A stretch of 64,000 nt of DNA, from positions 287,678 to 351,677 of the forward strand of contig CAZXLF010000002.1 of the NCBI GenBank assembly GCA_964642015.1. The letters are read 5' to 3'. The position numbers and the translations under genes were made by a program. A model generated the notes under the pieces. The model saw only the letters and a program-made list of their open reading frames with translations. It ran no database searches and was not told the origin of the DNA. The stretch is from an uncultured Planctomycetia bacterium. GTDB taxonomy: Bacteria; Omnitrophota; Gorgyraeia; 2-02-FULL-51-18. Below are positions 3,229 to 54,859 of the stretch, piece after piece. Every line of letters starts with the position of its first letter. Within the stretch, counting starts at the first letter, position 1.

Positions 3229-3229
3229 T

Positions 3230-35168: not shown

Positions 35169-38100
35169 GTGATGAAAATAAAAACCCGCCTGATAGAGAA
35201 ATTATGTCTGAAAAGTGTCGCCGTTTCTTTGATCCTATCTTTTTCGTTCTCTCAGCTTGTTTGGGCCGTCGATGTGCGACAGATGATCCTGGATGCCGAG
35301 AGCTCATTTGACCAAGATACGCGCAGATCAGGAAATTTGACGCCGACGAATCTTACGACCGCTCAGACACAGGCCCAGACCACAGTTGACCAACAGCAAG
35401 CGCTGCAAGATCTGCAGAACACAAATTTCAGTCTCACCACCAAGAACGGGGATGTTCTCCAATACGTAGGGAATGTTTTAAACAAAGTACAGCGTCCTGA
35501 CGGTACTTTGCTGAACAATATACAAGTCGACGCCAATGGGAATATCACGAATGCCAACCTGAAACTTTCTGATGGATCTATTCAAATATTTCAAAATGGG
35601 CAGGTGATTGGCTACGGAACACCGGATGGAAACACGGTAGTTTATTCTGCCGGTCAAATTCAACAAGTCATATCCAAAACCGGCATCGTGACGAACTATT
35701 CCTATATCAAAGATTCGTTGGGCAATGTTATCGAGACAGATCTGGATAATACTTCCTATACCACTAAATACGACGCCAATAATAAGTTGAAAGAAGTTTA
35801 TGATAAGGTAGCGGGTTCAAGGACTACCTACACGAACGGCGTTATCCAAAAAACCGTTAAATCTGACGGAAGCCAGATCCTTTATAATAGTGCGGTCCAG
35901 CCCAATGGTGATATTATCGTCACACCCCCCAATTCCAATTCAAGCACTTATACCGATACCCAGGGCAATATTTTCACATTTATTTCCGGCAACGTTTCAA
36001 CAATAAAGCTTAAAGATGGATCTATTCTCGATAGCATTGTTTGGGACGCTTCCAATGCTGTTCAAAGTGCGAACCTCACGGCGGCGGACGGGACTAAATA
36101 TGTTTATCAAAATAAACAATTAACTCGTTCGACCGATCCAACAGGCGTGGTTACTAATTACACATACACATCAACAAATATTGTCGTTGCTTCAGCGGGA
36201 AGCACATGGGTTTATGATCCGAATAAAAATCCGATCTCTTATACGGATCTTTCAGGAAATACAACGACCTATCTTACGTCGGGTGCTTTTAAGGGTTTAA
36301 AAGACAGGGATATCTTGTCAACAGGTCAGACTTTTGTTTATGAATATTCGCAGAATTCTTCCGGCGTTATCTCGGTGCAAAAAAGAGAAGTCCATTTACA
36401 GACGTACAATGTGACTACTTATTCGGGAACGGCTCTTTTGGCTTCAAATAATCCCTATCTTTTATTCGACGCGCGATTTGAAAATGACAATAGCTTTGAT
36501 CCCAAGATCAGCGCCAGCGCCACTGGCACCGGCAAAAGTCTGGCTGTAAACCTAGTAGCGGGATCTACGGGGTCTAGTTTTACTTTCAATGGAGTGGTCA
36601 CTGCATTAAATGTGTCAGTCGCGAAAGGCACGACTTATAACGTAGAGATACGTTGGGAGACAGGCAGGATAGGCATTTATGTTTATCCCAAAGGGACGAC
36701 CCGACCTTCAACTCCCCAGGGTATCGTGACGGATCGAAGCTGGGACCCCACATTTAAATTTAGCGGCCAAAACGCATATGTCGGGTATACCTATGATTCC
36801 GCTACGTGGCCTTGGAGTCAACGGGGCGCGTTCAGTGTGGTCACTACATCCAACGCTCAGAGTTATGCTTATCTTCCGGGAACTCCGGCAGAAAAAATCA
36901 CTCTGAATTTAAATGGCAGTTATCAAGCTATTTCATTGACGACCAAGCAATATCTATCCGGAATTTACAGGACTATTACGTTCGGTTGGAATGCCAGTAA
37001 TAGTATTTGGAACACAAAAGTATCCGACTGGAATTCTTCGACGAATGTGACCACTATTGTTTCTACCGGCACCGTGGCTCAGACGCTGACCTCGGGCACG
37101 GATTATGTGTTTGACCTTAGGATCGAGGGCGCTTACTTGAACGGTTATGTTTATTTGAAAGGGCAAGCCAGACCGTCTACGCCCACATTGTCGGTATCAG
37201 CGCTGAGCGCCTCGACGGATTACGAGGCGATCGTGTGGGGCTCCGCTTCTACCAAGACCGAGCTTTATAAAAATCTGACAGCGCCGACTTACTCAGCGGC
37301 TGCTTTTCAGGCGAAGCCGGTGACCGCTCTGATCGATACAGTTAAAAATCTTACGATCACAAAACCCGCGGCGCCATCTTCGAATCCTACGGATTATTCA
37401 TCTATCACTTACAGTTCGGATTCAAAGATCAAACAAATAGTCAAGACCGACAACTCAAAATATATTTTCCAAAACGGCCTTTTAACGCAAGTGCTGGATC
37501 CTTCCGGAAATCCGACAAATTTCAATTTTACCCAAAGCATTTTTTCTAACATTACCGGCTCTGAGATTGTTCAAAATAATCTGGATTCAAAATATGACGG
37601 TTCGGGTAATCTGTCGCAGATAAAAATTAATGACATCACGATCCATTACCTGCCCGGCTCGACTCAGATCGATTACATCGAGAAAACCGACGGCACTCAG
37701 CTTCATAATTTGGTTTTCGATGCCTCGGGCAATATTATAGGCGCGGACATCACCGCGCCAACGGGGGAGATAAGAAGTTATCAAAACGGCCAGCTTATTG
37801 ATCTGACGCAAACGGATAATTCGCAGATCTTTTATGCGAATGCCAAACCTTTGAAGATAGTCACGCCGGATAAGCTGACTTACAATTTCGACTACACGAC
37901 GCCGAATATCGTTCAAGCGGTCTTGGATCCCTCGATTGTACCCTCCGACGCGCTTACTCCGGTAAAGATGCAGTATGACACAAATTTTAATCTGACAAAA
38001 GTTATCCGGCAGAATAATCAGATCTTGAATTATTTAAACAATAGTTTGACCGAGATCGATGCACCCTCTGCGGCGCCGCAGATCTTTGCTTATCAGAAAG

Positions 38101-41100
38101 ATGCAAATGGGAATATTCTTTCTTACACGGTGACACAGGGGAACATAGTGACCACCTATGATCCGAACAATAATCCGGTCAGCGCTGTGGTTAACCCAAC
38201 GTCGGATAACCCTCATACGTTGGCAGCGGCTTATCAATACGGAAAGATCCGTCAGATCAAAAAGGACGGTGTTGTGACCTTCAATTATACTTATGCATTC
38301 GATGCGTCAAACAATGAAATAACACAGGTTGACGACCTGGAAGAAAACACTTTCAGAACTTATCAGAGCGGAAATCTTGTGACTTCGCTCGATAGGAGCA
38401 CCTCTTTATTATCCACTTACGTTTATGTCGGCGGTCAGGTTTCTCAGGTCCAGGTTTCACGCCTGGGAAGGAATTTGCATATTTACAATTATAGTTATAG
38501 CGGCGGAATGACGGTTGTGACGGACGACGAGGGAACGATCCGGACTTATGATGCCAATAAACAGCTTTTGTATCTTGAAAAGAATGGACAAAAATTCCAG
38601 TATATTTACACAACTTCCACCAAGACGAATCCTATAACGATACAAACCGTTCTGCCTGTGACTACGCTCAGTCAGGTTTCTCAAAGTACGGGCTCTAATT
38701 CCTGGCAGCAGTGGCAAGTCAATTCTTCAGAAGGTTCTTTGGGTATCGCTTCTTGGGGATGGGTGACGTACAACGCGACGCTTTCGCAGGCGTCGGACTT
38801 AAAAATAGAATTTGATTCCTCAAATTTCAGCGGCAATGTGCCGTCGGGGTATCAATTCAATCTGGACATCGCCGTTGACGGAGTATCAAAGACCCAATAT
38901 TGGACTCCTGTCGTTGTTGCCGGTTGGACGGCCAATTCATTAACGCTGACCGGTCTGAGCTCCGGTACGCACGCGGTCAAGATCACCTGGCTCAATGATT
39001 ATTACGTCGCGAATCAATACGATGCTAATTTTAAATTCCGTAATCTCAAGATGACGCAGATCAACACGACGACCACGACGACCAGTGACCCGATCACGCA
39101 AGAGAACTTGATCGAACAAAAGCTTTCCGACGGTTCGGTCGCTCATTATAGCAATGGGGCCATTTCTTCAATTACGAGACCGGATGGTTCAGTGATATCA
39201 GACCTTACGCTTGATTCGAACGGCCAGGTTACAAAAGGGACCGTCACTTTGTCTAATGGCATCAAAAAAATATTTAATGGCACTTCTATTTTGGAAGAGA
39301 TCGATCCTGATGGAACGCACTTTTATTTTTCCAATAACGAAATTTCCAAAGTCGTTGATACTTTGGGTAAGACATTCAATTACACTTACGACACAGATGC
39401 CGCCGGAAATGTGATAGATGCTTGGCTGGATTCCGGGAGCGGAGCGTTATTAAAATACGATCCGAACGGAAATTTGCTCGGGTTTAAACCGAATAATCTG
39501 TCTCCTTATATCAATGGTCAGGTGAGTTTCAGTGATTCAAGCAGTGCTCAATATGCGATCACCAGATCCGCAACCGCGCGTTTGGATGCCGGACTTCCTG
39601 TTTTTGGATCTGGCTCGGCTTATTTTGACGGAACAAGTTATCTATCGGTCCCGCATACTGGTGATTGGGATTTTGGGACAGGCGATTTTACGGTAGATTT
39701 TCAGGCAAGATTTCGCGATACAACCTCCACCCAAGCTTTATTCTCGATCGGTGATTATGCGTCCAATGGTTTGACGCTTTACTATACAAACGGGAATTTA
39801 AATATCCATATTAACAGTGCCGCCGTTAGCAAGTCCATCGCATGGACGCCCGTCCAGAACCAGTGGTATCACTTTGCTTTGGTGCGCACGGGCGCTGCCG
39901 TAAAATTATTCGTTAATGGCACTCAAGCCGGAACAGATCTTACAAATTCATCAAATATATCCGGTTCGGCAACCGGCGTATATATCGGAGCGCTTTACAG
40001 CGGCGGCACCGGAAATTATTTGAATGGAAATATTGATGAATTCAGGATATCAAAAGGTATCGCGCGTTGGACGTCCAATTTCACTCCGTCGACTCAAGCC
40101 TACACGGCGGATAGTAACGCAAAGCTTTTGCTGCATTTCGACGGTACAGAGGACAAATATTTTTATAAGTTCAATGTCCAGAAAGACGCTTCCGGAAATC
40201 TTACAGGATATTCTTTTGACGGAGCCGGAGGAAAAATGTCTTATGATGCCCAGGGAAATTTTATTTCTACGACATTGAGTTCTTCTGACCCCGGTCTGAC
40301 GTATTTTGCCGATTCCAGTCTGACCAAATATACCTCGATGCCCTTTGGGAATGTGCATCTGGATCCTACTCAATCTAAGCTGGGTTCATCGTCGGTGCTT
40401 TTTGACGGTTCAAGTTATATTGCCGTTCCAAATAGTGATGACTGGGACCTTGGGACCGGAGATTTTACGATAGACAGCTTTGTGAAGTTTAAAAGCACGG
40501 CCGGTACTCAGTGGCTTGCGCAGATCGGTAATTACAGCTCTCACGGGGTCGGTCTTTATTTTGTATCCAATACGATCTATGCGCATGTGACAAGCTTGAC
40601 CTACACCTTGTCGGCGGCCTGGACGCCCAGCGTAAACACTTGGTATCACGTAGCGTTGCTGAGAAGCGGATCGGCGCTGAATATCTACATCAACGGGGTG
40701 CAGCTCCCCGGAACGTCTAATTCGACAAATGTCACCGGAGTGACTGAAGGTGTCGGTGTCGGCGGTTCCAGCATCATGAATTCTTTTAATGGTTGGATGG
40801 ACGAATTCAGGATATCAAAAGGCCTCGCGCGTTGGACGGGGAATTTCACTCCGCCCACTCAACCGGATGTCGCGGACAGTTACACGAAACTTCTGATGCA
40901 TTTCGAGGATCAGGTGAGTGCGGATCTTTCCGGTATTTCGCAAAGCATGTCAGTCGTCAAATCGTCTACGATCACGCTGCCTTATAAATTGGTGCTCACT
41001 AATTTTTTGCCTGATGTGACCGCATGGTACGGGGATGCGCAGACGGCTTTACTTGATAACCAAACCGTTATAGCCAATGAATATTCTTCGGATGGCACGC

Positions 41101-44100
41101 TTCAAACTCAGACGAAAGCCGATGGGACTGTGACGCTATTTGACAATAACAAACCCTCCGAAGTTTTGAGTGCTGCCGGAGCGATCCTGATCCAATACAG
41201 TTATGACGCTGACGGAAATCCTTCGAGAGTCTATCTCAAAAATGCGCGCGACACCTTGCCGGAGGAGGTTTTAAAAGCCAAGCAATCCATCGAGCAGCAG
41301 CGCGCCTCATCTCTTCAGGCTCTTGCCGCTCAGAAAAATCTCGCATACCAATCGATCCAGACCCAAGTACAAGCTCAGAGGCAAGCGCTGCAGCAAAATC
41401 TAACCGATCTTCAAAATCAATATAATCAAGTCGCCAATACGCCCGCCAGCGGCAAAAGCGCCAAAAATGCCAGAGGCAATGTTTTAAATCAGATCGGCAC
41501 TCAAATGGATCTGGTGCGTTCCGCTCTGGTCACTTCATATCAGCAGGAGGCCGATGCCTATGCCGCGCTTGATGCGCAGGTGAAAGCCTCATCCGACAAA
41601 ATAGAAGCAGATTCACAGAGCGCTTTCACGGCACTCGCCACCCAAGAGGCGAATTTAAAGCAGCAGATCCTTCAGCAGGAAGTTTCGCCGATCGTTTATG
41701 ATTATTATCGCCGTTTGTTGGGCCGTGACCCTGCGACTATGGAATACAACTCTTGGATTGGAAAGGTCGATTATTCCTCAGGCAACACATTTGTAGAAGT
41801 AAAGACCACTGACGGCTCGCTCCTTACCGCGGCACTCAAGTCATCGATCAATTCTTCGCAGGAGCTCATTGACCGGCAGACTTACGTTCAAAATATCAAG
41901 AATGCTGTTACTTCATCGATCAACAGTTATCTGGCGATGACTCAAGCCAATCAACAGGCATTTGCCGCTTCGCTGGGATTATCAACGAACGACGTAATCA
42001 ATCTCACGTCGAGTGACGCCCAGAAAATTTTGACATGGCTTAATTCACGTTCGTTACATTTCGGACAGTCGGCTTTCTTATCTCTCGAATCACTCCTTGA
42101 CCAGAAGGGCATCACATATGACCGCCAGGATCTCGCCAAAAAATGTATCCTGGTCGATGTTCTCTCGGGAGTGATCACACCTTTGGATGATGGGGACCTT
42201 GTGATCTCGGTATTTGCGTTGAATAAAGTCGCCTCACTGTATGGCACGGGGCTTACCGCCGCCAATGTCAGTTACGACGATCTTTTAAGTTTATATGTCT
42301 CTCAGCCGACGGCACGCACGATCGCGCACATCAACGGTGATCATTTTGTGGTCATTACGGCTGTAACCAAAGACAACGTTACCTATATTGATCCCGGCAA
42401 AGGGGTGGATAAGCAAAATGAATCCGTGACGGTCTCCAAGATGGATTTTATGAAAACATTCAAAGGCAACGTGACTTTAGACAATTCAAAAGCGCAAGCT
42501 ATTGCGAATATTTCTTCCAAAACTCTATCGGTCGAACAGACTAAGAAGATCCGTGGAGCGTTTTTACCGCTTCTTATTGCAGCGATCTTCAGCGCGATCT
42601 CGTCCATTGGAAGCGCGGTTTTCGCGGTCGCCAACGGTATAGGGACTATCATTGCCGGCGTCGGCACGATTGTAAGCGGCGCTTTGAATGGCATCGGCCA
42701 GGCACTTTCTATTTTGGGGCAGAACCTGTCCTATATCGGCCAGGCGGTTTTTAACGGGATCAAATTTGCCGCGAGTACGATCTATAACCTTGGAAGTCAG
42801 ATCTTCGCGTCTTTTGCGGGCCAGACGCTTTTCCCGAGCTTGACGCAAGTGAGCTTCGGCAGCCAGCTTTTCCAGACTGCCGTAAATATTGGCGTTAATT
42901 TCGCCACGCAAAAAGGCCTTGATGCATTGGGCATAAATCCTCAGATCGCAAGTCTGGCTTCCGCATTTGTATCGGGAGGAACCGTCGGAAGTTTCAATAG
43001 CGGATTTAACGCGGCAAATTTCATCCAAAATGGGATCAAGACGCTTGCTTTAGTCAGTTCTCAAACACTGCTTCAGCGCGTGGGCCTCGACGCAAATCTT
43101 TCTTCAACGCTTTCTTTGATCGTGAGCCCGCTGGTGAATGGCATTCAGTCAGGGAATATCGGCGGTAGCCTTGTCAAAATAATCCCTGACCTGACAAAGA
43201 ATCTCTCGCTTTACGGAGTGGATAAATTAGGCACAAGCTTGGGTCTGGATGCGGGGATCTCATCCTTGGCCGGAGTTTCGCTGGTCAATGGGCTAAACGC
43301 GGCGTTTGGGGGAGGAACGAACGTTGGGCAGAGTGTTATCCAATCGATCCAAAGCGGACTAACTCAAGGCATCGTTCAATATGGATTGAATTTTGTAGGA
43401 AACTCAAACCCTATATTTGGTTCTTTGTTGAGTAGTGATATGGCTAAAAATATCGAGCTTGCGATTGGACGCGACGGATTATTTCAAACTGTATTCAATG
43501 TTCTCCAAAATACCGTATTGAATGCGGTGAATGTTGTTGGGGGAACGGTCCAATCGATCTTTACAGGCATCACTGATTTTGGTTCGCTCATCCAGCAAAA
43601 AGGTCTGCCCGGAGCTTTGCAGTATTATCTGAATTCCGTATTTAGTCGGAATACTCAAGAGACGATCCTGGCAGAAGGCGGGATACAATCAATATTCAAC
43701 AACACCGCGAAGACCGCGACTACACTGCCCGACGGAACAGCGGGTCAAGAGCTTAAGATCAGCGACTCGGCGTCATTGCTGTTTGATAATGCAGGAAATC
43801 TGAAAGGTAAAAAAGAAAACGGTGTTATTGAGTTAGGAACTTTCGGATTGGACTCTACGGGCAAATTTGGCCTTACAGCCGGACAGGTGACAGCTGTGTT
43901 GGCGCCGGACCTTAATTTAAGCGCACAAGTAAATGGCGGACAACTACAAACCGCGAGCGTCAAAGGTTCGGATGGGACTTCTGTTGTGGATATAAATCCA
44001 GAAAACACTAATCAACCGATTTATATCGAAGGCCCACAAACACAAACCTCAAACGCATCCCAGTCGTTTGATTTTTGGGGGGCGGTGTTGAAGCTTGTTC

Positions 44101-45230
44101 CGTATGGACTTTCTTTATGGTTAGGGGATGCTTCGGTCCAAGCTGCCCAGCAGACAGCTAGCCCTAATACAACAATACAGTCGATACAAGATTCTACTCG
44201 ATTAGTTTATGCGTTAGCCAATGGCATAGCGAATCCTAATAGTGACGAAACAAAAGCCCCAGACTATATACAAAATCTGGAGCAAAATCTTAAAAACCAG
44301 GGTAATGGTCAGATATCAGATTCAGATTTGCTACCTATTCCTCTTTATCAACATTTATTTCAGTTTACACATATTAATCAGAGCATAGATGCAATTAAAT
44401 GGATTATGGAATCGCAGGACCCGACAGTCCATGGAACGCTTGTGAATCAAGCGTTTGATAATCTACACAACTTCTTTTGGAAGAACGGCCTAGACCCTTA
44501 TTATATGCAACGGCCAATTGTGGGTATGGGATATTCAGGCGGATTTATGCCGCTCGTGGAAGCAATAGCAGCGACAGGGGGTATTTATAATTTCAAATCT
44601 CTAGTCGCCTTAGGTGCAGCCACCATTAGTTTGAGTCAAGACTTGGCAGACGCTGTCGTCAAGACCATTCAATATATTGAACAGGTCCAGGTAAGCGATA
44701 TTGCAAAAAACTTTGGTTTAATATTCGGTTCCGCAAGCAACATCATTCAGCAATTTATTAACGATGTGCAAAATAATTTAATTGACCCAGCGTTTACTTT
44801 GCTGGAGAATCAACTTGAAAGTATCACTCGGCAGAGCGACCCTAATAACGTTGAAAATTTACCAGATCTTTCCAATACGAATGTCCAACAGATAGTGAAC
44901 GTTTGGGGTACAAAAGATATCCTAGCTCAGACAGGTATTGGGGGACAAAAAAGCGCACTATGCGGACTATCAGGACAAAAATTAATTAATGTCGAAATTG
45001 TTGGCGCGACGCATTTTGACTATATGTTGCGCGGTGCAAATGATCCAAATCTACCAGACACTTGGAACTATAATGTAAGCAATTTTGTGACGGCGTTAAT
45101 TCGGAACAGTGATAATTCTAGTGATTTAAACGGATTCTTAGCTCAACAACAGAGTATAAATGTGACTTTTTTTGATAGCACACGCCAAGTATGGGTTGTT
45201 AAACTATCTGGCTGGGAGAGTCATCAATGA
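35169..45230 (+). CDS. giant secreted multidomain protein (3353 aa). Domains in order: signal peptide, YD/Rhs-like beta repeats, two tandem LamG/ConA-like domains, Gln-rich coiled coil, DUF4214-like motif, C39-like peptidase-like domain, long Gly/Ala/Ser-rich hydrophobic segment, C-terminal GxSxG alpha/beta-hydrolase-like region
   Basis: A single uninterrupted 10,062-nt ORF. Signal peptide MMKIKTRLIEKLCLKSVAVSLILSFSFSQLVWA. Recurrent YxYDxxGN-type repeats (NYTYAFDASNNEI, NYTYDTDAAGNVI, QYSYDADGNPS). Duplicated ~160-aa modules FDG(T/S)SY(L/I)(S/A)VP..DWD(F/L)GTGDFT(V/I)D...WYH(F/V)AL(V/L)R(T/S)G(A/S)...DEFRISKG(I/L)ARWT(S/G)NFTP, LamG-like. YDYYRRLLGRDPATMEYNSWIGKV (DUF4214-like). HFVVITAV...YIDPGKG (C39 His motif). 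PIVGMGYSGGFMP...WGTKD...GATHFDYM (Ser-Asp-His order). Confidence 0.8.
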   Translation: MMKIKTRLIEKLCLKSVAVSLILSFSFSQLVWAVDVRQMILDAESSFDQDTRRSGNLTPTNLTTAQTQAQTTVDQQQALQDLQNTNFSLTTKNGDVLQYVGNVLNKVQRPDGTLLNNIQVDANGNITNANLKLSDGSIQIFQNGQVIGYGTPDGNTVVYSAGQIQQVISKTGIVTNYSYIKDSLGNVIETDLDNTSYTTKYDANNKLKEVYDKVAGSRTTYTNGVIQKTVKSDGSQILYNSAVQPNGDIIVTPPNSNSSTYTDTQGNIFTFISGNVSTIKLKDGSILDSIVWDASNAVQSANLTAADGTKYVYQNKQLTRSTDPTGVVTNYTYTSTNIVVASAGSTWVYDPNKNPISYTDLSGNTTTYLTSGAFKGLKDRDILSTGQTFVYEYSQNSSGVISVQKREVHLQTYNVTTYSGTALLASNNPYLLFDARFENDNSFDPKISASATGTGKSLAVNLVAGSTGSSFTFNGVVTALNVSVAKGTTYNVEIRWETGRIGIYVYPKGTTRPSTPQGIVTDRSWDPTFKFSGQNAYVGYTYDSATWPWSQRGAFSVVTTSNAQSYAYLPGTPAEKITLNLNGSYQAISLTTKQYLSGIYRTITFGWNASNSIWNTKVSDWNSSTNVTTIVSTGTVAQTLTSGTDYVFDLRIEGAYLNGYVYLKGQARPSTPTLSVSALSASTDYEAIVWGSASTKTELYKNLTAPTYSAAAFQAKPVTALIDTVKNLTITKPAAPSSNPTDYSSITYSSDSKIKQIVKTDNSKYIFQNGLLTQVLDPSGNPTNFNFTQSIFSNITGSEIVQNNLDSKYDGSGNLSQIKINDITIHYLPGSTQIDYIEKTDGTQLHNLVFDASGNIIGADITAPTGEIRSYQNGQLIDLTQTDNSQIFYANAKPLKIVTPDKLTYNFDYTTPNIVQAVLDPSIVPSDALTPVKMQYDTNFNLTKVIRQNNQILNYLNNSLTEIDAPSAAPQIFAYQKDANGNILSYTVTQGNIVTTYDPNNNPVSAVVNPTSDNPHTLAAAYQYGKIRQIKKDGVVTFNYTYAFDASNNEITQVDDLEENTFRTYQSGNLVTSLDRSTSLLSTYVYVGGQVSQVQVSRLGRNLHIYNYSYSGGMTVVTDDEGTIRTYDANKQLLYLEKNGQKFQYIYTTSTKTNPITIQTVLPVTTLSQVSQSTGSNSWQQWQVNSSEGSLGIASWGWVTYNATLSQASDLKIEFDSSNFSGNVPSGYQFNLDIAVDGVSKTQYWTPVVVAGWTANSLTLTGLSSGTHAVKITWLNDYYVANQYDANFKFRNLKMTQINTTTTTTSDPITQENLIEQKLSDGSVAHYSNGAISSITRPDGSVISDLTLDSNGQVTKGTVTLSNGIKKIFNGTSILEEIDPDGTHFYFSNNEISKVVDTLGKTFNYTYDTDAAGNVIDAWLDSGSGALLKYDPNGNLLGFKPNNLSPYINGQVSFSDSSSAQYAITRSATARLDAGLPVFGSGSAYFDGTSYLSVPHTGDWDFGTGDFTVDFQARFRDTTSTQALFSIGDYASNGLTLYYTNGNLNIHINSAAVSKSIAWTPVQNQWYHFALVRTGAAVKLFVNGTQAGTDLTNSSNISGSATGVYIGALYSGGTGNYLNGNIDEFRISKGIARWTSNFTPSTQAYTADSNAKLLLHFDGTEDKYFYKFNVQKDASGNLTGYSFDGAGGKMSYDAQGNFISTTLSSSDPGLTYFADSSLTKYTSMPFGNVHLDPTQSKLGSSSVLFDGSSYIAVPNSDDWDLGTGDFTIDSFVKFKSTAGTQWLAQIGNYSSHGVGLYFVSNTIYAHVTSLTYTLSAAWTPSVNTWYHVALLRSGSALNIYINGVQLPGTSNSTNVTGVTEGVGVGGSSIMNSFNGWMDEFRISKGLARWTGNFTPPTQPDVADSYTKLLMHFEDQVSADLSGISQSMSVVKSSTITLPYKLVLTNFLPDVTAWYGDAQTALLDNQTVIANEYSSDGTLQTQTKADGTVTLFDNNKPSEVLSAAGAILIQYSYDADGNPSRVYLKNARDTLPEEVLKAKQSIEQQRASSLQALAAQKNLAYQSIQTQVQAQRQALQQNLTDLQNQYNQVANTPASGKSAKNARGNVLNQIGTQMDLVRSALVTSYQQEADAYAALDAQVKASSDKIEADSQSAFTALATQEANLKQQILQQEVSPIVYDYYRRLLGRDPATMEYNSWIGKVDYSSGNTFVEVKTTDGSLLTAALKSSINSSQELIDRQTYVQNIKNAVTSSINSYLAMTQANQQAFAASLGLSTNDVINLTSSDAQKILTWLNSRSLHFGQSAFLSLESLLDQKGITYDRQDLAKKCILVDVLSGVITPLDDGDLVISVFALNKVASLYGTGLTAANVSYDDLLSLYVSQPTARTIAHINGDHFVVITAVTKDNVTYIDPGKGVDKQNESVTVSKMDFMKTFKGNVTLDNSKAQAIANISSKTLSVEQTKKIRGAFLPLLIAAIFSAISSIGSAVFAVANGIGTIIAGVGTIVSGALNGIGQALSILGQNLSYIGQAVFNGIKFAASTIYNLGSQIFASFAGQTLFPSLTQVSFGSQLFQTAVNIGVNFATQKGLDALGINPQIASLASAFVSGGTVGSFNSGFNAANFIQNGIKTLALVSSQTLLQRVGLDANLSSTLSLIVSPLVNGIQSGNIGGSLVKIIPDLTKNLSLYGVDKLGTSLGLDAGISSLAGVSLVNGLNAAFGGGTNVGQSVIQSIQSGLTQGIVQYGLNFVGNSNPIFGSLLSSDMAKNIELAIGRDGLFQTVFNVLQNTVLNAVNVVGGTVQSIFTGITDFGSLIQQKGLPGALQYYLNSVFSRNTQETILAEGGIQSIFNNTAKTATTLPDGTAGQELKISDSASLLFDNAGNLKGKKENGVIELGTFGLDSTGKFGLTAGQVTAVLAPDLNLSAQVNGGQLQTASVKGSDGTSVVDINPENTNQPIYIEGPQTQTSNASQSFDFWGAVLKLVPYGLSLWLGDASVQAAQQTASPNTTIQSIQDSTRLVYALANGIANPNSDETKAPDYIQNLEQNLKNQGNGQISDSDLLPIPLYQHLFQFTHINQSIDAIKWIMESQDPTVHGTLVNQAFDNLHNFFWKNGLDPYYMQRPIVGMGYSGGFMPLVEAIAATGGIYNFKSLVALGAATISLSQDLADAVVKTIQYIEQVQVSDIAKNFGLIFGSASNIIQQFINDVQNNLIDPAFTLLENQLESITRQSDPNNVENLPDLSNTNVQQIVNVWGTKDILAQTGIGGQKSALCGLSGQKLINVEIVGATHFDYMLRGANDPNLPDTWNYNVSNFVTALIRNSDNSSDLNGFLAQQQSINVTFFDSTRQVWVVKLSGWESHQ

Positions 45231-46003
45231 AAAAACCGATAGTATTAACAGCCCTTTCTTTAATGACAACCTTTATCTTTAGTCATCATCTTTGTGCTGA
45301 TAATAAGAATCAGAATGGTAAACCGATCTATACCGTTGTTGGCGGACAAGGTTTAACACCTTTTCCGAATAATGAAAATACGAGGAGAATTATTAAAAGA
45401 ACTGACTTAATTCGAGAAGGCAATAAATTGGCCCATTCAGCTTTATATGATCAGGCTATAATAAAATTCCAAGAAGCAATGGATCCTTCTTTGTTTAATG
45501 ATCCAAGAGATGAGGCAGAAGGGCGTTATGGAATAATGAAGGCACGTATACGTCAGAGCAGATTTAAAGATGCCCTTAATGAGAATCAATGGTTTATCCA
45601 AAAATTTGGTCTTAATGAAAGCAATAAAGAAACGCGCCAGGAAATATTGGCTCTAATTGATTTTCAGACGACAGGCACAGCCAAATTTATTTATAACCAT
45701 GTTGAGAGTTTAAAGAATAAATATTCCGATCAACTTCCGCCTCGAAATTTTGTTGGCAACGGGCCTATAGTTTCGTCGGAAATTATTCATCTTTACGATT
45801 ACATTAACGATTCAGATAAGGCAATCGCGTTTCTAAATGAGTTTTTGACTTATCTAAAAAAACGCAGCAATGCTAGCAATTCCGACAAATCAGAAATTGC
45901 CGAATACGAAGCTGCCAAGCAAGCCTTCAAAGAGGATAAGCAGACTGGCCTAAAAGGCCATCTTCAAAAAGTTATAGCAACTTCAGAGTATATTGGGTGG
46001 TGA
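45227..46003 (+). CDS. hypothetical secreted protein translationally coupled to the giant gene (candidate immunity/accessory protein)
   Basis: Its ATG overlaps the giant-gene TGA (ATGA). N-terminal signal peptide MKKPIVLTALSLMTTFIFSHHLCA. 258 aa, helical-looking, no enzymatic motifs. Confidence 0.55.
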   Translation: MKKPIVLTALSLMTTFIFSHHLCADNKNQNGKPIYTVVGGQGLTPFPNNENTRRIIKRTDLIREGNKLAHSALYDQAIIKFQEAMDPSLFNDPRDEAEGRYGIMKARIRQSRFKDALNENQWFIQKFGLNESNKETRQEILALIDFQTTGTAKFIYNHVESLKNKYSDQLPPRNFVGNGPIVSSEIIHLYDYINDSDKAIAFLNEFLTYLKKRSNASNSDKSEIAEYEAAKQAFKEDKQTGLKGHLQKVIATSEYIGW

Positions 46004-46642: not shown

Positions 46643-48028
46643 ATGATTATGCCCAAGCGTCTGGCGATCTTATTTTTCTTATTAATTTCCTCAGCCAATG
46701 TTTATGCCGACTCATCTGCACCCACCGCTTTGGACGCTTACGTCCGCACACCCGACGAACATTTCAATTATTCCTTGCAGAAGACCGTGCGTGGAAATGG
46801 CTACACGACCTATGTGATAAATCTGACGTCCCAGCAATGGTTGACCAAAGAACAGGTCGATCGTCCGATCTGGAGACATTGGCTTACGATCATCGAACCG
46901 GACAAAGTACGCAGTAATAAAGCACTGCTCCTTATCTACAGCGGTATTTACGGCGCCTTGGAAAAAGGAATGATGGAGAAAATAGCGCAGGATACCGGTT
47001 CGGTCGTGGCATGTGTCGAGCCGCTTCCGGAGATGCCGCTTACTTTTACCGACAAAAATGGAAAGAGCGGCCAATTGGCTGAAGATACGCTTATCGCCGA
47101 CAGTTGGGCACGATATTTGAGGACCGGTGACACAAAGCGCCTGGTGCGATTACCGATCGTAAAAAGCGTTGTCAGCGCAATGGACGCGGTGAGCCGGTTT
47201 TGCGCCAATGACGCCGATCATAAGATAACCGTCGATCAATTTGTGCTTGCGGGCCAATCCAAGCGCGGATGGGCCGTGTGGCTTGCGGCATCGGTGGATA
47301 AGAGGGTGGTCGCGGTTATTCCCATGGTCATCGATATATTGAATGTCGTACCCTCATTGAAGCATCAGTACGAATCTTACGGACACTGGGAAGAAGCGAT
47401 GGGAGACTATGAGAGCGCGGGAGTTTTAGGTCAAATAAACGCGAAGCAATTCGCGGAATTAATAAAGATCGAAGACCCTTATTCCTATAAAGAGCGTTTG
47501 ACAATGCCGAAATATATCATTAATTCAGCTGACGATGAATTTTTCCCTCCGGATTCTTCGCGATTTTACTTTGATGACCTTTTGGGTGAAAAATATTTGA
47601 GGTATGTGCCGAATAGCAGCCACCACTTGTATGGAACAGATGTGATGCGGTGTGTTGAGTCGTTTTATTGGTCGATTCTTGAAGGGAAGGTGAGACCGCG
47701 GTTTTCGTGGAAGATCCAAGCCGATGGATCCATACGACTTCTAGTGATAGATAAACCTTTGAAGGTGAAGCTCTGGCAGGCCACCAACCCTGAAGGGCGC
47801 GATTTCCGGCTTCACGTCGTCGGAAACGCTTGGACGAGCAAAGAGATCTCTGAAACGGGACCGGGCGTTTATATCGGCAGTGTGCCTGCACCCGCGAAAG
47901 GTTGGACAGCATTTTTTTTGGAGCTGACCTATAATAATGGAGATGGTTCGACTCCGCTTAAATTCACCACTTCTGTGAGCGTGGTGCCGGATAGAATGCC
48001 GTTTGAGTATCGCGAGAATTCACAATAA
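46643..48028 (+). CDS. secreted alpha/beta-hydrolase-like protein resembling the PhoPQ-activated pathogenicity-related (PqaA-type) family
   Basis: Signal peptide MIMPKRLAILFFLLISSANVYA. N-terminal ALDAYVRTPDEHFNYSL...YVINLTSQQWLT...WRHWLTIIEP resembles my recollection of that family's conserved N-region. GQSKRGW is a nucleophile-elbow-like motif. Assignment from memory only. Confidence 0.4.
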   Translation: MIMPKRLAILFFLLISSANVYADSSAPTALDAYVRTPDEHFNYSLQKTVRGNGYTTYVINLTSQQWLTKEQVDRPIWRHWLTIIEPDKVRSNKALLLIYSGIYGALEKGMMEKIAQDTGSVVACVEPLPEMPLTFTDKNGKSGQLAEDTLIADSWARYLRTGDTKRLVRLPIVKSVVSAMDAVSRFCANDADHKITVDQFVLAGQSKRGWAVWLAASVDKRVVAVIPMVIDILNVVPSLKHQYESYGHWEEAMGDYESAGVLGQINAKQFAELIKIEDPYSYKERLTMPKYIINSADDEFFPPDSSRFYFDDLLGEKYLRYVPNSSHHLYGTDVMRCVESFYWSILEGKVRPRFSWKIQADGSIRLLVIDKPLKVKLWQATNPEGRDFRLHVVGNAWTSKEISETGPGVYIGSVPAPAKGWTAFFLELTYNNGDGSTPLKFTTSVSVVPDRMPFEYRENSQ

Positions 48029-49316: not shown

Positions 49317-50551
49317 AGACCGACGATCAGAGGATAGTCATAACTGGAATAGGCGTTGTTTCACCGATCGGGATCGGAAAAGATGCTTTTTGGCAAGGCC
49401 TAAAAGAGGGCAGATCAGGAATAAAGCCGGTCACCCTTTTTGATACGTCAACAACACGGTCGAAGCTGGCCGGAGAAATAACCGATTTTAAACCGGAAGA
49501 AATTCTCGGCCCTAAAGGGCTAAGAAATTTGGACCGCACTACTAAACTGGCTTTATGCGCGGCTCAATTAGCATTGGACGACGCGAATTTTAAAATAACT
49601 GAAGAAAATTCAAATGATGTTGGTGTGGTATTAGGCTCGACGATGGGGAGCGTGTGGAGCATTAGTGAATATGATAAACAAACGTTAAAAGAGGGCCCCA
49701 GATCTGTTAATCCGGCCTTGTTTGCGAATACTGTTATCAATTCACCGGCGAGTCAGATATCGATTCGGTTTGGAATCCAAGGATTCAATTCAACTATTTC
49801 GACAGGATTTTCATCCGCATTTGATGCGCTGAAATACGCGTCAGATTTCATTAAATGGGGAAAAGCAAGCGCTGTATTGGTTGGAAGCGCAGAGGAGCTT
49901 TGCGAACAATTCTTCAAGGGTTTTTACAAATTAGGCATTCTTTCTAAGTCTCAAGAAAACAGTGAAGAAATGTTACGTCCTTTCGATAGGAGACGTAATG
50001 GCATGATTTTGGGGGAAGGTGCCGCAGTGTTTCTCCTAGAATCTTTACAACATGCCAGGCAAAGAAATGCGCCTATTTATGCGGAAATAGGATCTATTGC
50101 ATCTACCTTTAATAGACGATCCATGAATAGATATAACTTAAAGGCAACTGGTGAGATCGACAGTATGAAGAAAACATTATCTTTAGCAGAGTTAGATGCT
50201 AAGCATATTGATTGTATCGTGGCTTCGGCCAATTCTACCGTAAAAGGAGATTTAACCGAGAGTATAGCCATAACCCAAGTTTTTGATCAAGACAAACCGT
50301 CGGTCACAGCCTGTAAGTCGATGTTTGGTGAGACCTTTAGCGCGGCTGGCGCCATGAATCTTGCGGCGGGAATATTTATTCTAAAAAATCAATTTATTCC
50401 CCCAACGCTTAATGTAGAGCAAAAAGATAATGAATGTGGCGTAGAGTGTGTCAAAAATACCGGAGTATCCAAAAAAGTTGATCATATTTTGATCAATTCA
50501 TTCGGAGCGTCGGGACAAAATTCAAGCCTAGCTTTGGTAAGGAGTAGCTGA
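49313..50551 (+). CDS. beta-ketoacyl synthase-like protein lacking the catalytic Cys-His-His triad (chain-length-factor/KS-beta-like)
   Basis: Thiolase-fold KAS homolog, 412 aa. The active-site Cys position reads ISTGFSSAF rather than TAC(S/A)S. The His motifs read ASANSTVKGD and KSMFGETFSAAG, with no His in either. Confidence 0.75.
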   Translation: MKTDDQRIVITGIGVVSPIGIGKDAFWQGLKEGRSGIKPVTLFDTSTTRSKLAGEITDFKPEEILGPKGLRNLDRTTKLALCAAQLALDDANFKITEENSNDVGVVLGSTMGSVWSISEYDKQTLKEGPRSVNPALFANTVINSPASQISIRFGIQGFNSTISTGFSSAFDALKYASDFIKWGKASAVLVGSAEELCEQFFKGFYKLGILSKSQENSEEMLRPFDRRRNGMILGEGAAVFLLESLQHARQRNAPIYAEIGSIASTFNRRSMNRYNLKATGEIDSMKKTLSLAELDAKHIDCIVASANSTVKGDLTESIAITQVFDQDKPSVTACKSMFGETFSAAGAMNLAAGIFILKNQFIPPTLNVEQKDNECGVECVKNTGVSKKVDHILINSFGASGQNSSLALVRSS

Positions 50552-51759
50552 TGGAGCGTGTGGTTATTACAGGATTGGGTGTTATTACATCCATTGGCAT
50601 TGGTAAAGATGCTTTTTGGTCCAATCTGGTTCGAGGTAAGTCAGGAATAAATCCCGTTTCTCTAATTGATACCACTGATCATAAGAATAAAAACGGAGGA
50701 GAAATTAGAAATTTTAATCCTGATGATTTTATAGATTCCAAGAAACGAGAAATGTATGGTCGAGGGTCTCAGCTTGCCATTGCTGCCGCTAAACTTGCTC
50801 TAAAGGAAGCTAATATGAATTTTAAAAAAATAAATTCTGAAAATTCAGCCGTTATTATTGGCACTACTATGGCGAATATACGAGAGTTGGAAGAAGCAAA
50901 TAAGGTCTGGCTTACAAGCGGTGAAGATAAAGTAAATGCTGCCCTTATTACTAAATATCCAGGCAGCTCCCTTGCTTTTAACGTGGCTTACGAGTTAGGT
51001 TTAAAATCTCTTTGTTATTGTATCCCTACCGCTTGTGCGGCCGGCAATTATTCTATAGGTTATGGGTTTGATCTCATTCGGCACGGCGAGATTGATTTTG
51101 CATTGGTTGGCGGCGCAGATCCTTTTTCCAGAATAAGTTTTACAGGATTCGGAAATCTTTTTGCGATGGCGCCTGAAAAGTGTCAGCCTTTCGATAAAAA
51201 TAGAAAAGGTATGATGGTTGGCGAAGGCGGCGGAATGCTTGTTATTGAAAGTTTGAAACATGCTCAATTGCGAAATGCGCCTATTTATGCGGAAATATTA
51301 GGATATGGCTTAAGTTGCGACGCCAAACATATGACGCTTCCAAGTGTTGAAGGTTTGGGCAGTGTGATGAGGAAAGCTGTACAAGAGACTGGCATCAAAC
51401 AAGAAGATATTGACTATATAAGTGCCCATGGCACAGGTACAAAGACCAATGATTCCACGGAGGCGCAGGCGATCAATAGGGTTTTTCCCAAAGAGAAGAA
51501 AAAGATACCCGTGAGCTCTATAAAATCCATGCTTGGTCACACGATGGGCGCTGCGAGCGCTATCGAAGCTATTACTTGTGTGTTAGCGATCAAAAACTCT
51601 ATTATTCCACCGACTATTAATTTTGAAGAACCAGACAGTGAATGCGATATCGATTGTGTTCCGAATAGAGCTAGAAAACAGAACGTGAGAATAGCTCTCA
51701 ACAATTCTTTTGCTTTTGGCGGCAATAATGCATGCTTGGTGCTCAGCCGATTTAATTGA
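50551..51759 (+). CDS. beta-ketoacyl-[ACP] synthase (FabF/KS-alpha-like, catalytically intact)
   Basis: IPTACAAGNYSIGYG (Cys), ISAHGTGTKTND (His), KSMLGHTMGAASAIEAI (His), C-terminal NSFAFGGNNACLVL. Start overlaps the preceding KS-like stop. Confidence 0.85.
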   Translation: MERVVITGLGVITSIGIGKDAFWSNLVRGKSGINPVSLIDTTDHKNKNGGEIRNFNPDDFIDSKKREMYGRGSQLAIAAAKLALKEANMNFKKINSENSAVIIGTTMANIRELEEANKVWLTSGEDKVNAALITKYPGSSLAFNVAYELGLKSLCYCIPTACAAGNYSIGYGFDLIRHGEIDFALVGGADPFSRISFTGFGNLFAMAPEKCQPFDKNRKGMMVGEGGGMLVIESLKHAQLRNAPIYAEILGYGLSCDAKHMTLPSVEGLGSVMRKAVQETGIKQEDIDYISAHGTGTKTNDSTEAQAINRVFPKEKKKIPVSSIKSMLGHTMGAASAIEAITCVLAIKNSIIPPTINFEEPDSECDIDCVPNRARKQNVRIALNNSFAFGGNNACLVLSRFN

Positions 51760-51886
51760 AAGAAATGAATTTATGATAAAAGACCTTAACAAATGAAAAA
51801 TACAAAAGTCGTTTTTATTGCTCATTCGTTAAAAAATTTTATAAGCGTCAAAAATAGTGTCCAAACTAATGAGGAGACAGTTCAAT

Positions 51887-52144
51887 ATGCCGAAAAGCGC
51901 TAATGCAGCCCCAATAGAAAGCGATATAAGAAATCTTATCGCAAAAATTATCGAAGTAGAACCGGAGAAAATAGGTTCCGAAACGGGTTTTGTCGAAGAG
52001 CTCGGCGCAGATTCAATGATGGCGCTTGAGATCATGGCTTCTCTCGAAAAACAATTCAACATTACGATTCCCGAAGAAGATTTGCCGAAAATTACAAATT
52101 TAAGGCAAACCATTTATCTCGTTAAGTCGCTTATGAAAAAATGA
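51887..52144 (+). CDS. acyl carrier protein
   Basis: 85 aa with the 4'-phosphopantetheine attachment motif EELGADSMMALE. GGAGA RBS before the ATG at 51887, which is an internal Met of the 51857 ORF. Confidence 0.8.
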   Translation: MPKSANAAPIESDIRNLIAKIIEVEPEKIGSETGFVEELGADSMMALEIMASLEKQFNITIPEEDLPKITNLRQTIYLVKSLMKK

Positions 52145-52159
52145 TCATTGGAATAGAAG

Positions 52160-53626
52160 ATGTCAAATAAATATGATGTTGCAATTATTGGAGCGGGCAT
52201 TTCTGGACTGATAGCAGGAAATTACTTGGCACAGTCTGGCTTAAAAGTATTCATAGCGGAACAACATTACGCTGTTGGCGGATGTTGCTCATATTTTAAG
52301 CGAAATGGCTACACATTTGAATGTGGCGCCCATTCTCTTGGGAGCTGTCGAAATCCTGATGGATATCTATATAAAATTTTTAATGAACTTGGTATATATG
52401 ATGTTTTGGACATAAAGCGAGCGGAATGCTCCGACACATTAATATCAAATAAATACACGATTAATTTTTTAGATAACGCCTACCAAATGGCAAATAGTTT
52501 GGCTTATGAATTTGAACAATACAAAGGCCAGATTCACAGTTTTTTTGAGGAAGTGGAGGGATTTGGCGCAAAATCATTTCTTCGGTATTATGCGCGTTAT
52601 AAAAACATGACATTTGATATGTTTCTTTCTAAATATTTTGATAATGTCGAAATTAGAGAAATTTTAAGTATTTTCTTAGGAAATTTAGGTGTTGCTTCAA
52701 ACCAAATCAGTACCATAACAGCGCTTGCGTTATATAGAGAATTCGTGATGGATGGCGGATATTATGTTGAGGGCGGTATGAAAAAATTAGGTGATGTTCT
52801 AAAATGGAATTTTCAAAAAAATGGCGGCGTGGTTTCTTTAAAGGATAAAACAATCAAAATCATTTTAAAAAATGGGTATGCCTCAGGACTTGATACTGAA
52901 AGAAGCGGTATCATTGAATCAAAATATGTTATTTCGACAGCCGGCATCAAGCAAACATTCTTGGAGCTTATTAACGAAGAATTGATGCCGCTCGACTTTA
53001 TTTGCAAAGTTAAAAATTCAAAGCCGTCGGTATCCGCGCTGATACTTTATTTGGGTTTAAAAGGACGCAGCATTAAAGATGAGAAGTGGGGAAGGACAGT
53101 CTGGTACATACCAAATCTCAATCCAAACGAAGTGTATAGGAAAGCATTTGATGGTCAATGTGATGAAAATATCGAGGCGATGCTCATGGGGTTTCCTTCC
53201 AAGTATGATGAATCGTTAGTCCCACCGAATTGTGAAAGTTTAATGTGTATATTAAGTGCACCATATAAAAGTAACGATTTTTGGTCTACAAACAAAGCAA
53301 GATATAGAGAGGCCATAATCAATAGAATATCAACGCTCATCCCCAATATTAAAGATAGGATTGAGGTGTGCGAATTAGCAACACCTCCAACTATTGTTAA
53401 GTTCACGCTGAATGATGCAGGCGCAATTTATGGATTAGCATCAACTTCGGATCAGATAGATATTGACTATATGCCATTTAAAACACCTATTAAAAATCTA
53501 TTTTTATCGAGTCATTGGACAACCCAGGGTTATGGGCAAGCCGGGGTACCTGTCGTTGCACTAGCAGCCAAACAGGTGGCGTTTGCTATTCAAAAGAAAG
53601 AAAATCAGATCAAAGTAGTGATTTAA
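52160..53626 (+). CDS. FAD-dependent oxidoreductase of the phytoene desaturase (CrtI/CrtD-like) family
   Basis: N-terminal dinucleotide-binding fold KYDVAIIGAGISGLIAGNYLAQSGLKVFIAEQHYAVGGCCSYF...GAHSL. Length 488 aa, typical for the family. Confidence 0.75.
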   Translation: MSNKYDVAIIGAGISGLIAGNYLAQSGLKVFIAEQHYAVGGCCSYFKRNGYTFECGAHSLGSCRNPDGYLYKIFNELGIYDVLDIKRAECSDTLISNKYTINFLDNAYQMANSLAYEFEQYKGQIHSFFEEVEGFGAKSFLRYYARYKNMTFDMFLSKYFDNVEIREILSIFLGNLGVASNQISTITALALYREFVMDGGYYVEGGMKKLGDVLKWNFQKNGGVVSLKDKTIKIILKNGYASGLDTERSGIIESKYVISTAGIKQTFLELINEELMPLDFICKVKNSKPSVSALILYLGLKGRSIKDEKWGRTVWYIPNLNPNEVYRKAFDGQCDENIEAMLMGFPSKYDESLVPPNCESLMCILSAPYKSNDFWSTNKARYREAIINRISTLIPNIKDRIEVCELATPPTIVKFTLNDAGAIYGLASTSDQIDIDYMPFKTPIKNLFLSSHWTTQGYGQAGVPVVALAAKQVAFAIQKKENQIKVVI

Positions 53627-53766
53627 TTAGATTATCATCCATATTAATAATAAACATGGCGTCAATCTGGCGGTTTCTGATTGAGGGCAGAGGTTTGATG
53701 ACCATTACAAAAAATTCAGAAGTTATTTGATTAACAAATAATGGAAAACTAAAAGAAAGGTATCCT

Positions 53767-54843: not shown

Positions 54844-54859
54844 TGCACAGAGCAAAGAG

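Follow-up and report, generated by a model that had tools for sequence, protein, structure and literature searches.

A C39-fold domain with serine in the nucleophile column and a predicted cis cleavage motif in giant Omnitrophota proteins

What might a C39 peptidase-like domain be doing deep inside a giant protein, when serine stands where its nucleophilic cysteine would be expected? The question is raised by a locus of an uncultured Planctomycetia bacterium (GTDB lineage Bacteria; Omnitrophota; Gorgyraeia; 2-02-FULL-51-18), contained in a stretch of 64,000 nucleotides (nt) of contig CAZXLF010000002.1 of the assembly GCA_964642015.1 (positions 287,678 to 351,677 of the forward strand). This whole stretch is called here the window, and positions are counted from its first letter. 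A giant open reading frame (ORF) of the window (Table 1) encodes the peptide that had been quoted in a first, sequence-only reading of the DNA and placed at 41985-42410 on the + strand. That reading had hesitated between an inactive C39-like domain (CLD), such as those recognising substrates in RTX exporters, and a variant with a Ser nucleophile acting as an internal processing module. The answer developed below is that the domain is a true C39 homologue ending in a motif of the double-glycine type, and that S2301-dependent cleavage of its own chain between A2464 and F2465 is moderately probable. Residue numbers start at GTG 35169, one codon upstream of ATG 35172.

The homology to C39 has been established from sequence profiles and from the fold. 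The Pfam profile PF03412 (gathering score 22) matched the whole giant protein with 29.7 bits at amino acids (aa) 2347-2437 and the isolated 242-aa segment with 34.5 bits (E 2.1e-8). The match spans only profile positions 46-127 of 133, which correspond to the His/Asp half, and it is because Pfam aligns this half only that the Cys half had looked aberrant in the sequence-only reading. A family profile searched against PDB sequences matched the C39 (PEP) domain of PCAT1 (E 1.7e-7), and hhalign comparison of a 122-sequence family alignment with six canonical C39 domains of ATP-binding cassette (ABC) transporters gave a probability of 98.6% and an E-value of 1e-15. The canonical set consisted of the N-terminal domains of six proteins annotated as 'peptidase domain-containing ABC transporters' and encoded on plasmids of Bacillus, Bradyrhizobium, Staphylococcus, Leptolyngbya, Ligilactobacillus, and Rhizobium. 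An AlphaFold (AF2) model of the 242-residue segment, built from a 34-sequence alignment, reached a predicted local distance difference test (pLDDT) of 96.5 and a predicted TM-score (pTM) of 0.92, superseding a poor single-sequence run (pLDDT 43). Foldseek searches of the PDB with this model returned matches with a probability of 1.00 and E-values between 2e-5 and 1e-3, including the C39 structures of PCAT1 (8vp5, 7n87, 4ry2), LahT150 (6mpz), and ComA (3k8u), with target TM-scores of 0.67-0.73, as well as the papain-like toxins Citrobacter CdiA-CT (8ssm, 8ssk) and the toxin/immunity pair 9l5u. Target-normalised TM-scores ranged overall from 0.65 to 0.73 across 145-150 columns, that is, across the entire C39 domain. 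Residues 2223-2464 are confirmed as a genuine C39-fold domain homologous to C39, as the sequence-only reading had supposed. Its location was also right, and only its extent was drawn too narrowly, leaving out the N-extension and the C-terminal tail of the domain (Table 1).

The domain belongs to a sizeable family. When 1.84 billion representatives of clusters at 50% identity were searched exhaustively with HMMER, 415 proteins reached E<=1e-3, and 104 of them E<=1e-30; the relatives inspected here are the best 150 of the 415, with 265 weaker ones outside this sample. A word-indexed search with the domain gave one fragment only. Most of the best 150 relatives are proteins of 2,000-7,000 aa with the domain well toward the C-terminal end. 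Short family members were considered as natural minimal modules and rejected, the inspected ones being truncated fragments. When each GTDB species was represented by one genome and scanned, 80 loci were obtained, several genomes holding more than one copy. About 49 of the 80 are labelled Omnitrophota or Omnitrophica, including Ca. Omnitrophus fodinae and Ca. Taenariivivens, and the remaining ones are third-party metagenome-assembled genomes (MAGs) labelled 'uncultured Planctomycetia' or 'uncultured bacterium'. These labels are those of the MAG depositors, and all loci that carry a phylum label are Omnitrophota. The domain core of the window is 78-83% identical to copies in Omnitrophota MAGs, which by itself makes an Omnitrophota origin of the window very probable.

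In the hhalign alignment, S2301 pairs with the Cys of the D-C-G motif, H2392 with the catalytic His, and D2408 with the Asp of D-P-x-x-G. Two further points of the sequence-only reading, the intact His box and the missing nucleophilic Cys, are hereby borne out. The domain is a C39 homologue, yet it cannot be a cysteine peptidase because Ser2301 fills the Cys column. In the AF2 model, S2301 (model residue 79) sits at the N-terminus of helix 78-90, H2392 (residue 170) begins a strand, and the strand that comes next contains D2408 (residue 186); as modelled, this placement is the arrangement of the papain fold. The 16-residue spacing between His and Asp is identical to that of H96 and D112 in ComA (PMC8277102). 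The three residues are predicted to form a Ser-His-Asp catalytic triad in which Ser would be competent as the nucleophile.

The conservation of these positions was counted in 176 related domain copies. The nucleophile column holds Ser in 140 copies, Cys in 15, and Val in one, and His2392 is kept in 160 of 161. Asp (84) and Glu (75) share the D2408 column, with two other residues. In an insert specific to the family, D2330 (156/160), G2334 (161/161), and S2347 (160/162) are almost invariant. The Ser-type domains display a fixed H-F-G-x-S-A, in the same place where the Cys-type domains have V-I-N-C-A. H2297, four residues before the nucleophile, is confined to Ser-type domains and invariant there. 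The surroundings of the nucleophile have been switched together with Ser, which suggests a retuned rather than a decayed active site, and the conservation pattern argues for an active site over a relic. Of the 80 genome loci, 77 use a TCN codon for the nucleophile Ser and three use AGC, the codon of the window being TCG. TCN and AGC codons are not joined by any single mutation that preserves Ser, and the Cys codons TGY lie one step from each.

The 15 Cys-type copies were found by the same family hidden Markov model (HMM), and their Cys occupies exactly the S2301 column. They reside in Omnitrophota proteins named by NCBI 'cysteine peptidase family C39 domain-containing protein', and they keep the family-specific insert as ILIDxLTGxI. 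Compared with canonical C39 domains by hhalign, the Cys-type subset aligns Cys on Cys (98.7%, E 2e-16). Six Cys-type proteins of Omnitrophota, of 2,000-3,200 aa, contain two to three domain copies each.

The second half of the argument concerns the end of the domain. A leader of the Gly-Gly type, which the sequence-only reading had suggested looking for, is present directly after the domain core as L2453-S-V-E-Q-T-K-K-I-R-G-A2464, with the family consensus L-S-x-x-E/Q-x-x-x-I-R-G-[A/S]. The bond between A2464 and F2465, and hence between nt 42560 and 42561, is the predicted scissile bond. A logo drawn from 128 Ser-type sequences shows L (95) or I (25) at -12 (L/I in 120/128), S/T/N at -11, E (61) or Q (35) at -8 (96/128), I (91) or V (34) at -4 (125/128), R (95) or K (26) at -3, Gly without exception at -2 (128/128), and A (80) or S (45) at -1 (125/128). 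From +1 the chain reads F/F/P and continues with hydrophobic residues, positions +1 to +12 being hydrophobic across the family. Leaders cut by C39 peptidases end in GG, GA, or GS and bear Leu at -12, Glu at -8, Leu at -7, and a hydrophobic residue (Val/Ile) at -4 (PMC6363468). The tail motif of the giant protein matches this double-glycine leader consensus at the level of sequence. When a leader is bound to LahT150, its positions -4 to -11 make two helical turns within a hydrophobic groove, with P1-P3 extended (PMC6363468). In the AF2 model the tail forms a helix from -10 to -5 and a beta bridge at -3/-2, the last block having a pLDDT of 93, and the modelled conformation is the same as that of the leader bound to LahT150.

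The motif is a regular companion of the domain. It closes the domain envelope in about 118 of 152 proteins, stray matches of the regular expression being rare, and it occurs in 68 of the 80 independent genome loci, where the ORF always runs on in frame. The residual ORF after the motif typically measures ~750-1,000 aa, and no genes split at the predicted cut were detected in the 80 loci. With a position weight matrix built without the query, the motif of the window scores 38.1 bits, and no second site in the 64-kb window passes 12 bits, whichever of the six frames is read. In a search for known leader families, no HMM of NCBIfam or Pfam matched the tail significantly. The first copy of the Cys-type proteins (~aa 570-790) carries the same motif in the same place, e.g., ...AMKEIKGA followed across the predicted cut by DEAD, and after the later copies there is instead a conserved ...ERAPPP... 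stretch and no motif.

A separate likeness was noted around the predicted cut. The peptide KIRGAFLPLLIAAIFSAI (aa 2460-2477, window 42546-42600) gave a sub-threshold match to the Pfam family Adeno_PX, with 18.4 bits against a cut-off of 25. In adenovirus pX, the papain-like adenovirus protease cuts at M-R-G-G just before ILPLLIPLIAAAIG, which is hydrophobic and very similar. The likeness is probably a convergence of a small-residue cleavage site followed by a hydrophobic peptide.

How such a module would work can be outlined from these elements. An N-terminal signal peptide would send the first ~2,430 residues, peptidase included, across the cytoplasmic membrane. The tail helix would dock in the leader-binding groove through L2453 and I2461, with R-G-A extended across the active site, and S2301 would attack the A2464 carbonyl, giving one cut in cis with a single turnover. 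The products would be an N-terminal fragment of ~2,430 residues, in which the peptidase is accompanied by YD-like repeats, a pair of LamG lectin domains, and a coiled coil, and a C-terminal fragment of 889 residues, with the new N-terminus FLPLLIAAIF..., a glycine-rich region, and a variable end that is hydrolase-like here. In evolutionary terms, the C39 peptidase would have been relocated from the cytoplasmic N-terminus of a bacteriocin ABC exporter to the exported part of a giant surface protein. Since only a single turnover in cis is needed, a sluggish Ser variant could be good enough. The location of the peptidase, which is probably extracytoplasmic, and the Cys-poor composition of the protein offer a rationale for a Ser nucleophile. 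The proposal of the sequence-only reading that the domain is a Ser-nucleophile variant in an internal processing module fits the conservation pattern, and the catalysis itself is here a prediction from sequence.

Several observations weigh against catalysis by S2301. The N-terminal half of the Ser-type alignment has low per-column confidence in hhalign, and the placement of Ser is partly transitive via the Cys-type relatives; this doubt is mostly removed because the latter align confidently, Cys on Cys. The canonical oxyanion Gln, expected about six residues before the nucleophile, is not clearly conserved. It is set by hhalign opposite S2293, which is not conserved, and the position beside it (-7 to the nucleophile) is Q in 63 and R in 54 copies, with Arg in the giant protein. 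Position -7 of the cleavage motif is Ala/Thr, where a Leu is important for LahT and ComA. Ser is also a good helix N-cap, and its invariance could be structural. In papain-like enzymes the exchange of Cys for Ser usually cuts activity strongly (PMC10318531), and the inactive CLD of HlyB keeps its His as well (PMC8277102).

These objections find their best expression in the main alternative, in which a non-catalytic C39-like fold would clamp its own tail and serve as a latch, as a folding or export checkpoint, or as a recognition element, with Ser2301 as a helix N-cap. It would account for a nucleophile position without Cys, for the lack of a clear oxyanion Gln, and for a Ser that is intrinsically a poorer nucleophile in papain-like sites, and the CLDs provide the precedent of a His retained without catalysis. 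The comparison with CLDs also reveals where this alternative falters. The CLDs of HlyB, PaxB, and LktB have Tyr, Leu, or Asn at the Cys position, are located on ABC transporters, and serve substrates without a GG motif (PMC8277102). Both they and the giant-protein domain show a C39 fold without the catalytic Cys and with the His kept, but CLDs are N-terminal domains of ABC transporters whose substrates remain uncleaved, whereas the giant-protein domain has an invariant Ser, swapping only with Cys, a GG-type motif in cis, and no transporter. Neither ABC exporter, HlyD, nor TolC or other type I secretion system (T1SS) genes were found in the 64-kb window, and the giant protein lacks ABC_membrane and ABC_tran domains. 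The inactive CLD as in RTX exporters, favoured first by the sequence-only reading, is not supported by these findings or by the Ser/Cys/Val counts given above. The nearly absolute conservation of Ser, His, and Asp/Glu together with G-[A/S] at P2-P1 also speaks against a clamp, because binding alone would not require small residues at P1 and P2, and Cys-type relatives with a canonical active site bear the same cis motif. A non-catalytic clamp is accordingly regarded as unlikely.

A second alternative accepts the enzyme and displaces its substrate. The domain might act in trans on prey surface proteins or on other GG-type proteins of Omnitrophota, its tail being an autoinhibitory pseudo-substrate or plug. 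The conserved triad is equally compatible with such a protease, and trans-cleavage is raised as a possibility by West-Roberts et al. The second and third Cys-type copies have no adjacent motif, so some Cys-type copies must act elsewhere or not at all. Against a substrate in trans, the window offers no other matching site in any frame, and a tether of no more than ~25 residues joins the motif to the core, with the motif docked in the model, which favours cis. An enzyme with Ser in place of Cys is also more plausible as a single-turnover cutter in cis than as a multi-turnover protease, and action in trans is judged improbable.

Still less credible, and very improbable, is that the domain serves as a toxin in its own right, of the papain-like Tox-PL-C39 or CdiA-CT kind, and is delivered to target cells. 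Tox-PL-C39 domains were described in polymorphic toxins by Zhang et al. 2012 (PMC3482391), and the top Foldseek matches include CdiA-CT and 9l5u, but these toxins scored no better than the PCAT and LahT peptidases. Toxin tips are C-terminal and variable, whereas the present domain is internal, with a fixed position ~890 aa before the C-terminus, and has Ser instead of Cys. Chance resemblance, in the sense of a His-box look-alike in a low-complexity giant protein, could draw on the weak single-sequence results (a PDB match at E 0.04 and the poor AF2 run), but it is refuted by the Pfam score above gathering, the hhalign E-value, the high-confidence model matching C39 structures by Foldseek, and the 415 clusters, and retains practically no credence.

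The region that cis-cleavage by S2301 would release is informative about its possible purpose. The stretch that directly follows the predicted cut could form a helical hairpin, since its 45 residues are long enough, or a membrane anchor. It is part of a glycine-rich region that is common to ~90 of the 150 relatives and has no Pfam match; a word-indexed search with it gave three fragments and no stand-alone proteins made of a leader and a glycine-rich part. The C-terminal part is complete in 92 proteins; their first 450 aa past the motif form a single homology cluster, and the peptidase, the site, and these 450 aa travel as one module in 92/92. The last 330 aa of the same 92 relatives fall into 29 clusters, the largest holding 54, so the C-terminal end is variable. 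In the window this end is a domain without Pfam or PDB sequence match, in which the putative triad residues are conserved (S 21/21, D 21/22, H 21/22) among the relatives sharing the domain, which are part of the family only. The Ser-Asp-His order suggests a serine hydrolase of the alpha/beta-hydrolase type, and the domain is likely to be lipase/esterase-like. The GC content falls to 0.36-0.40 at 44001-46000 and 50001-56000, being ~0.46-0.48 elsewhere. The first dip coincides with the variable C-terminal domain and the downstream ORF and would fit a recombinational exchange of the tip.

Cleavage may serve the shedding of an ectodomain from a membrane anchor or the priming of a membrane-inserting effector. 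The latter can be extended, by analogy with the priming of viral class I fusion proteins, into a self-priming membrane attack. The cut in cis would unmask the hydrophobic, Gly/Ala-rich FLPLLIAAIFSAISSIGSAVFAV..., and the glycine-rich region could insert into the membrane of a prey or host and deliver the variable C-terminal enzyme, here lipase-like. Predatory or epibiotic Omnitrophota would then have fused a whole bacteriocin maturation system (leader, GG site, C39 protease, and cargo) into giant surface proteins and exchanged Cys for Ser for work outside the cytoplasm. This scenario is speculative and rather doubtful.

The architecture of the remaining protein agrees with a large exported chain in its N-terminal segment, which from its sequence is a predicted signal peptide. 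An identical giant protein is encoded on a Logan contig of 32.6 kb (run SRR12313479). The Pfam scan of the giant protein detected Laminin_G_3 twice, weak RHS/YD repeats, and Peptidase_C39 (PF03412). Kyte-Doolittle analysis of the entire chain singles out just two segments as strongly hydrophobic, aa 13-36 and aa 2461-2509. The composition is very low in Arg and Glu and high in Ser, Thr, Asn, and Gln, and only three Cys occur in 3,353 residues (aa 13, 2326, and 3265), one of them in the signal peptide. Upstream of the C39 domain lies the Y-x-x-[IL]-L-G-R-D/x-P segment IVYDYYRRLLGRDPATMEYNSWIGKV (aa ~2191-2221, window ~41740-41830), which is also present just before the domain in four relatives. 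It presumably resembles DUF4214-type repeats, no Pfam match being reported for it. The coordinates of all features are collected in Table 1.

Table 1. Features of the giant gene, its C39 domain, and its neighbours, in window coordinates
Feature	Position (nt)	Strand	Residues	Description
Giant ORF	35172..45230	+	3,352 aa counted from ATG	
Signal-peptide-like segment	35172..35276	+		Basic n-region, hydrophobic aa 13-36; possible cleavage after ...VWA, before VD
Complete conserved domain	41835..42560	+	aa 2223-2464	Helical N-extension, C39/papain-like core, leader-like tail
H-F-G-Q-S-A motif	42057..42074	+	S2301 (nt 42069-42071)	S2301 is the predicted nucleophile
Family-specific insert ILVDVLSGVITPLDDGDLVIS	42156..42209	+		Holds D2330, G2334, S2347; absent from canonical C39
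Predicted general base	42342..42344	+	H2392	His box HFVVI; aligns with the catalytic His of PCAT1
Putative third triad residue	42390..42392	+	D2408	16 residues past His; aligns with Asp of DPxxG
Double-glycine-leader-like motif LSVEQTKKIRGA	42525..42560	+	aa 2453-2464	L-12, S-11, Q-8, I-4, G-2, A-1
Hydrophobic stretch FLPLLIAAIFSAISSIGSAVFAV-ANG-IGTIIAGVGTIVSGALNGI	42561..42695	+	45 residues	Directly after the predicted cut
Glycine-rich region	42561..44003	+	aa 2465-2945	Gly 13.6%, K+R+D+E 6%; conserved
C-terminal domain	44133..45227	+	aa ~2990-3353	G-Y-S3123-G-G, D3250, H3282
Codons of the putative C-terminal triad	44535-44537; 44916-44918; 45012-45014	+	S3123; D3250; H3282	
Downstream ORF	45227..46003	+	258 aa	Start overlaps the giant-gene stop (ATGA); N-terminal hydrophobic segment
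PhoPQ-activated pathogenicity-related protein	46643-48028	+		PF10142, E 2e-113; starts 640 nt beyond the 258-aa ORF
Two tandem paralogous histidine kinases	59886-63130	-	~540 aa each	Seven-transmembrane (7TM) HisKA_7TM sensor domain

The immediate genomic surroundings add one candidate partner. The ATGA overlap suggests translational coupling of the 258-aa ORF with the giant gene; its product belongs to no Pfam family and could be a partner, a chaperone, or an immunity-like protein. The other neighbours of the giant gene are housekeeping genes, namely isopropylmalate/isocitrate dehydrogenase-type, asd, truA, thiG, and fab genes. A 712-aa ORF at 54860 was considered as a T1SS or PCAT partner and rejected, since it encodes a GAF histidine kinase. 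Together with this GAF histidine kinase (54860-56998) and a GAF-HD protein encoded nearby at 58247-59473, the tandem kinases of Table 1 make up a dense signalling cluster.

Compared with known systems, the domain stands closest to the C39 peptidases of PCAT and AMS proteins (PCAT1, LahT, ComA, and CvaB). They share the fold, sequence homology, the His and Asp positions with their 16-residue spacing, a nucleophile at the N-terminus of helix 1, and the same type of motif (hydrophobic -12 and -4, acidic or amide -8, Gly -2, and Gly/Ala/Ser -1), and in the model the tail resembles the LahT-bound leader in being helical and then extended. The PCAT/AMS enzymes have a Cys nucleophile and are ABC-fused and cytoplasmic, whereas the giant-protein domain has Ser, is unfused, and lies behind a putative signal peptide. 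Their substrate motif is the N-terminus of a separate small peptide, while that of the giant protein belongs to the same chain, C-terminal to the enzyme, and differs by Ala/Thr at -7 and a conserved Arg/Lys at -3. The giant-protein domain has in addition a helical N-extension of ~65 residues and an insert of 14-16 residues with invariant Asp/Gly. It is a C39 homologue that, judging from these sequence features, probably works like C39 on a C39-type motif. Two defining features of C39, the Cys nucleophile and the ABC-exporter context, are absent from it, and the tethering of the substrate in cis is added.

Proteases that detach an effector or an anchor from a large repeat or delivery region are known elsewhere, as in the MARTX/TcdB cysteine protease domain (CPD), the C-terminal aspartyl autoprotease of Rhs proteins, and the shedding of LapA by LapG. 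The MARTX/TcdB CPD is triggered by inositol hexakisphosphate (InsP6) and LapG by cyclic di-GMP (c-di-GMP), and the protease folds or families and the cleavage motifs of these systems differ from those of the giant-protein domain. Papain-like families with Ser for Cys have also been listed, namely menin, DUF2145, DUF2272, DUF3750, and APC5867, their activity being unproven (Ozhelvaci and Steczkiewicz 2023, PMC10318531). They resemble the present family in a conserved Ser beside a retained His and Asp/Asn, but none of those listed there is a C39 and none has an attached substrate motif.

C39 domains in giant proteins of Omnitrophota have already been reported. According to the preprint by West-Roberts et al. 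(bioRxiv 10.1101/2023.11.21.568195), they occur in 'Archaeovorins' and in dockerin-type proteins; the authors suggested either that the giant proteins are cleaved or that the domains have a chaperone role like that of HlyB, and stated that missing information on cleavage points blocked further analysis. A 2026 Omnitrophota preprint lists a 24-protein architecture cluster with PF03412 and does not analyse it further. The proteins described in these preprints and the present ones share the phylum, the Pfam family, and very large, partly membrane-associated hosts. The terms catalytic, nucleophile, leader, and double-glycine were not found in the searched passages of either preprint, and neither a Ser-type C39 nor a GG motif in cis was found to be reported in the open-access papers and preprints searched. 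What the present sequence comparisons appear to add to the earlier Omnitrophota reports is the division into Ser and Cys types, the motif in cis, and the prediction of one particular scissile bond, for a sub-family of proteins of 2-7 thousand aa.

If the prediction is true, this would be the first member of the C39 family to use Ser, with natural Cys-type sister domains for comparison, and it would provide a clean system for understanding the retuning of a papain-fold active site to a hydroxyl nucleophile. A compact, thiol-free, and sequence-specific self-cleaving domain could also serve for tag removal. An exporter-coupled, cytoplasmic leader peptidase would have been re-used together with its substrate motif, in cis, within an exported protein. 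The giant proteins of Omnitrophota may work as intact chains or as cut pieces, and for this question a named bond, named residues, and a searchable motif are now at hand for a sub-family of 415 clusters.

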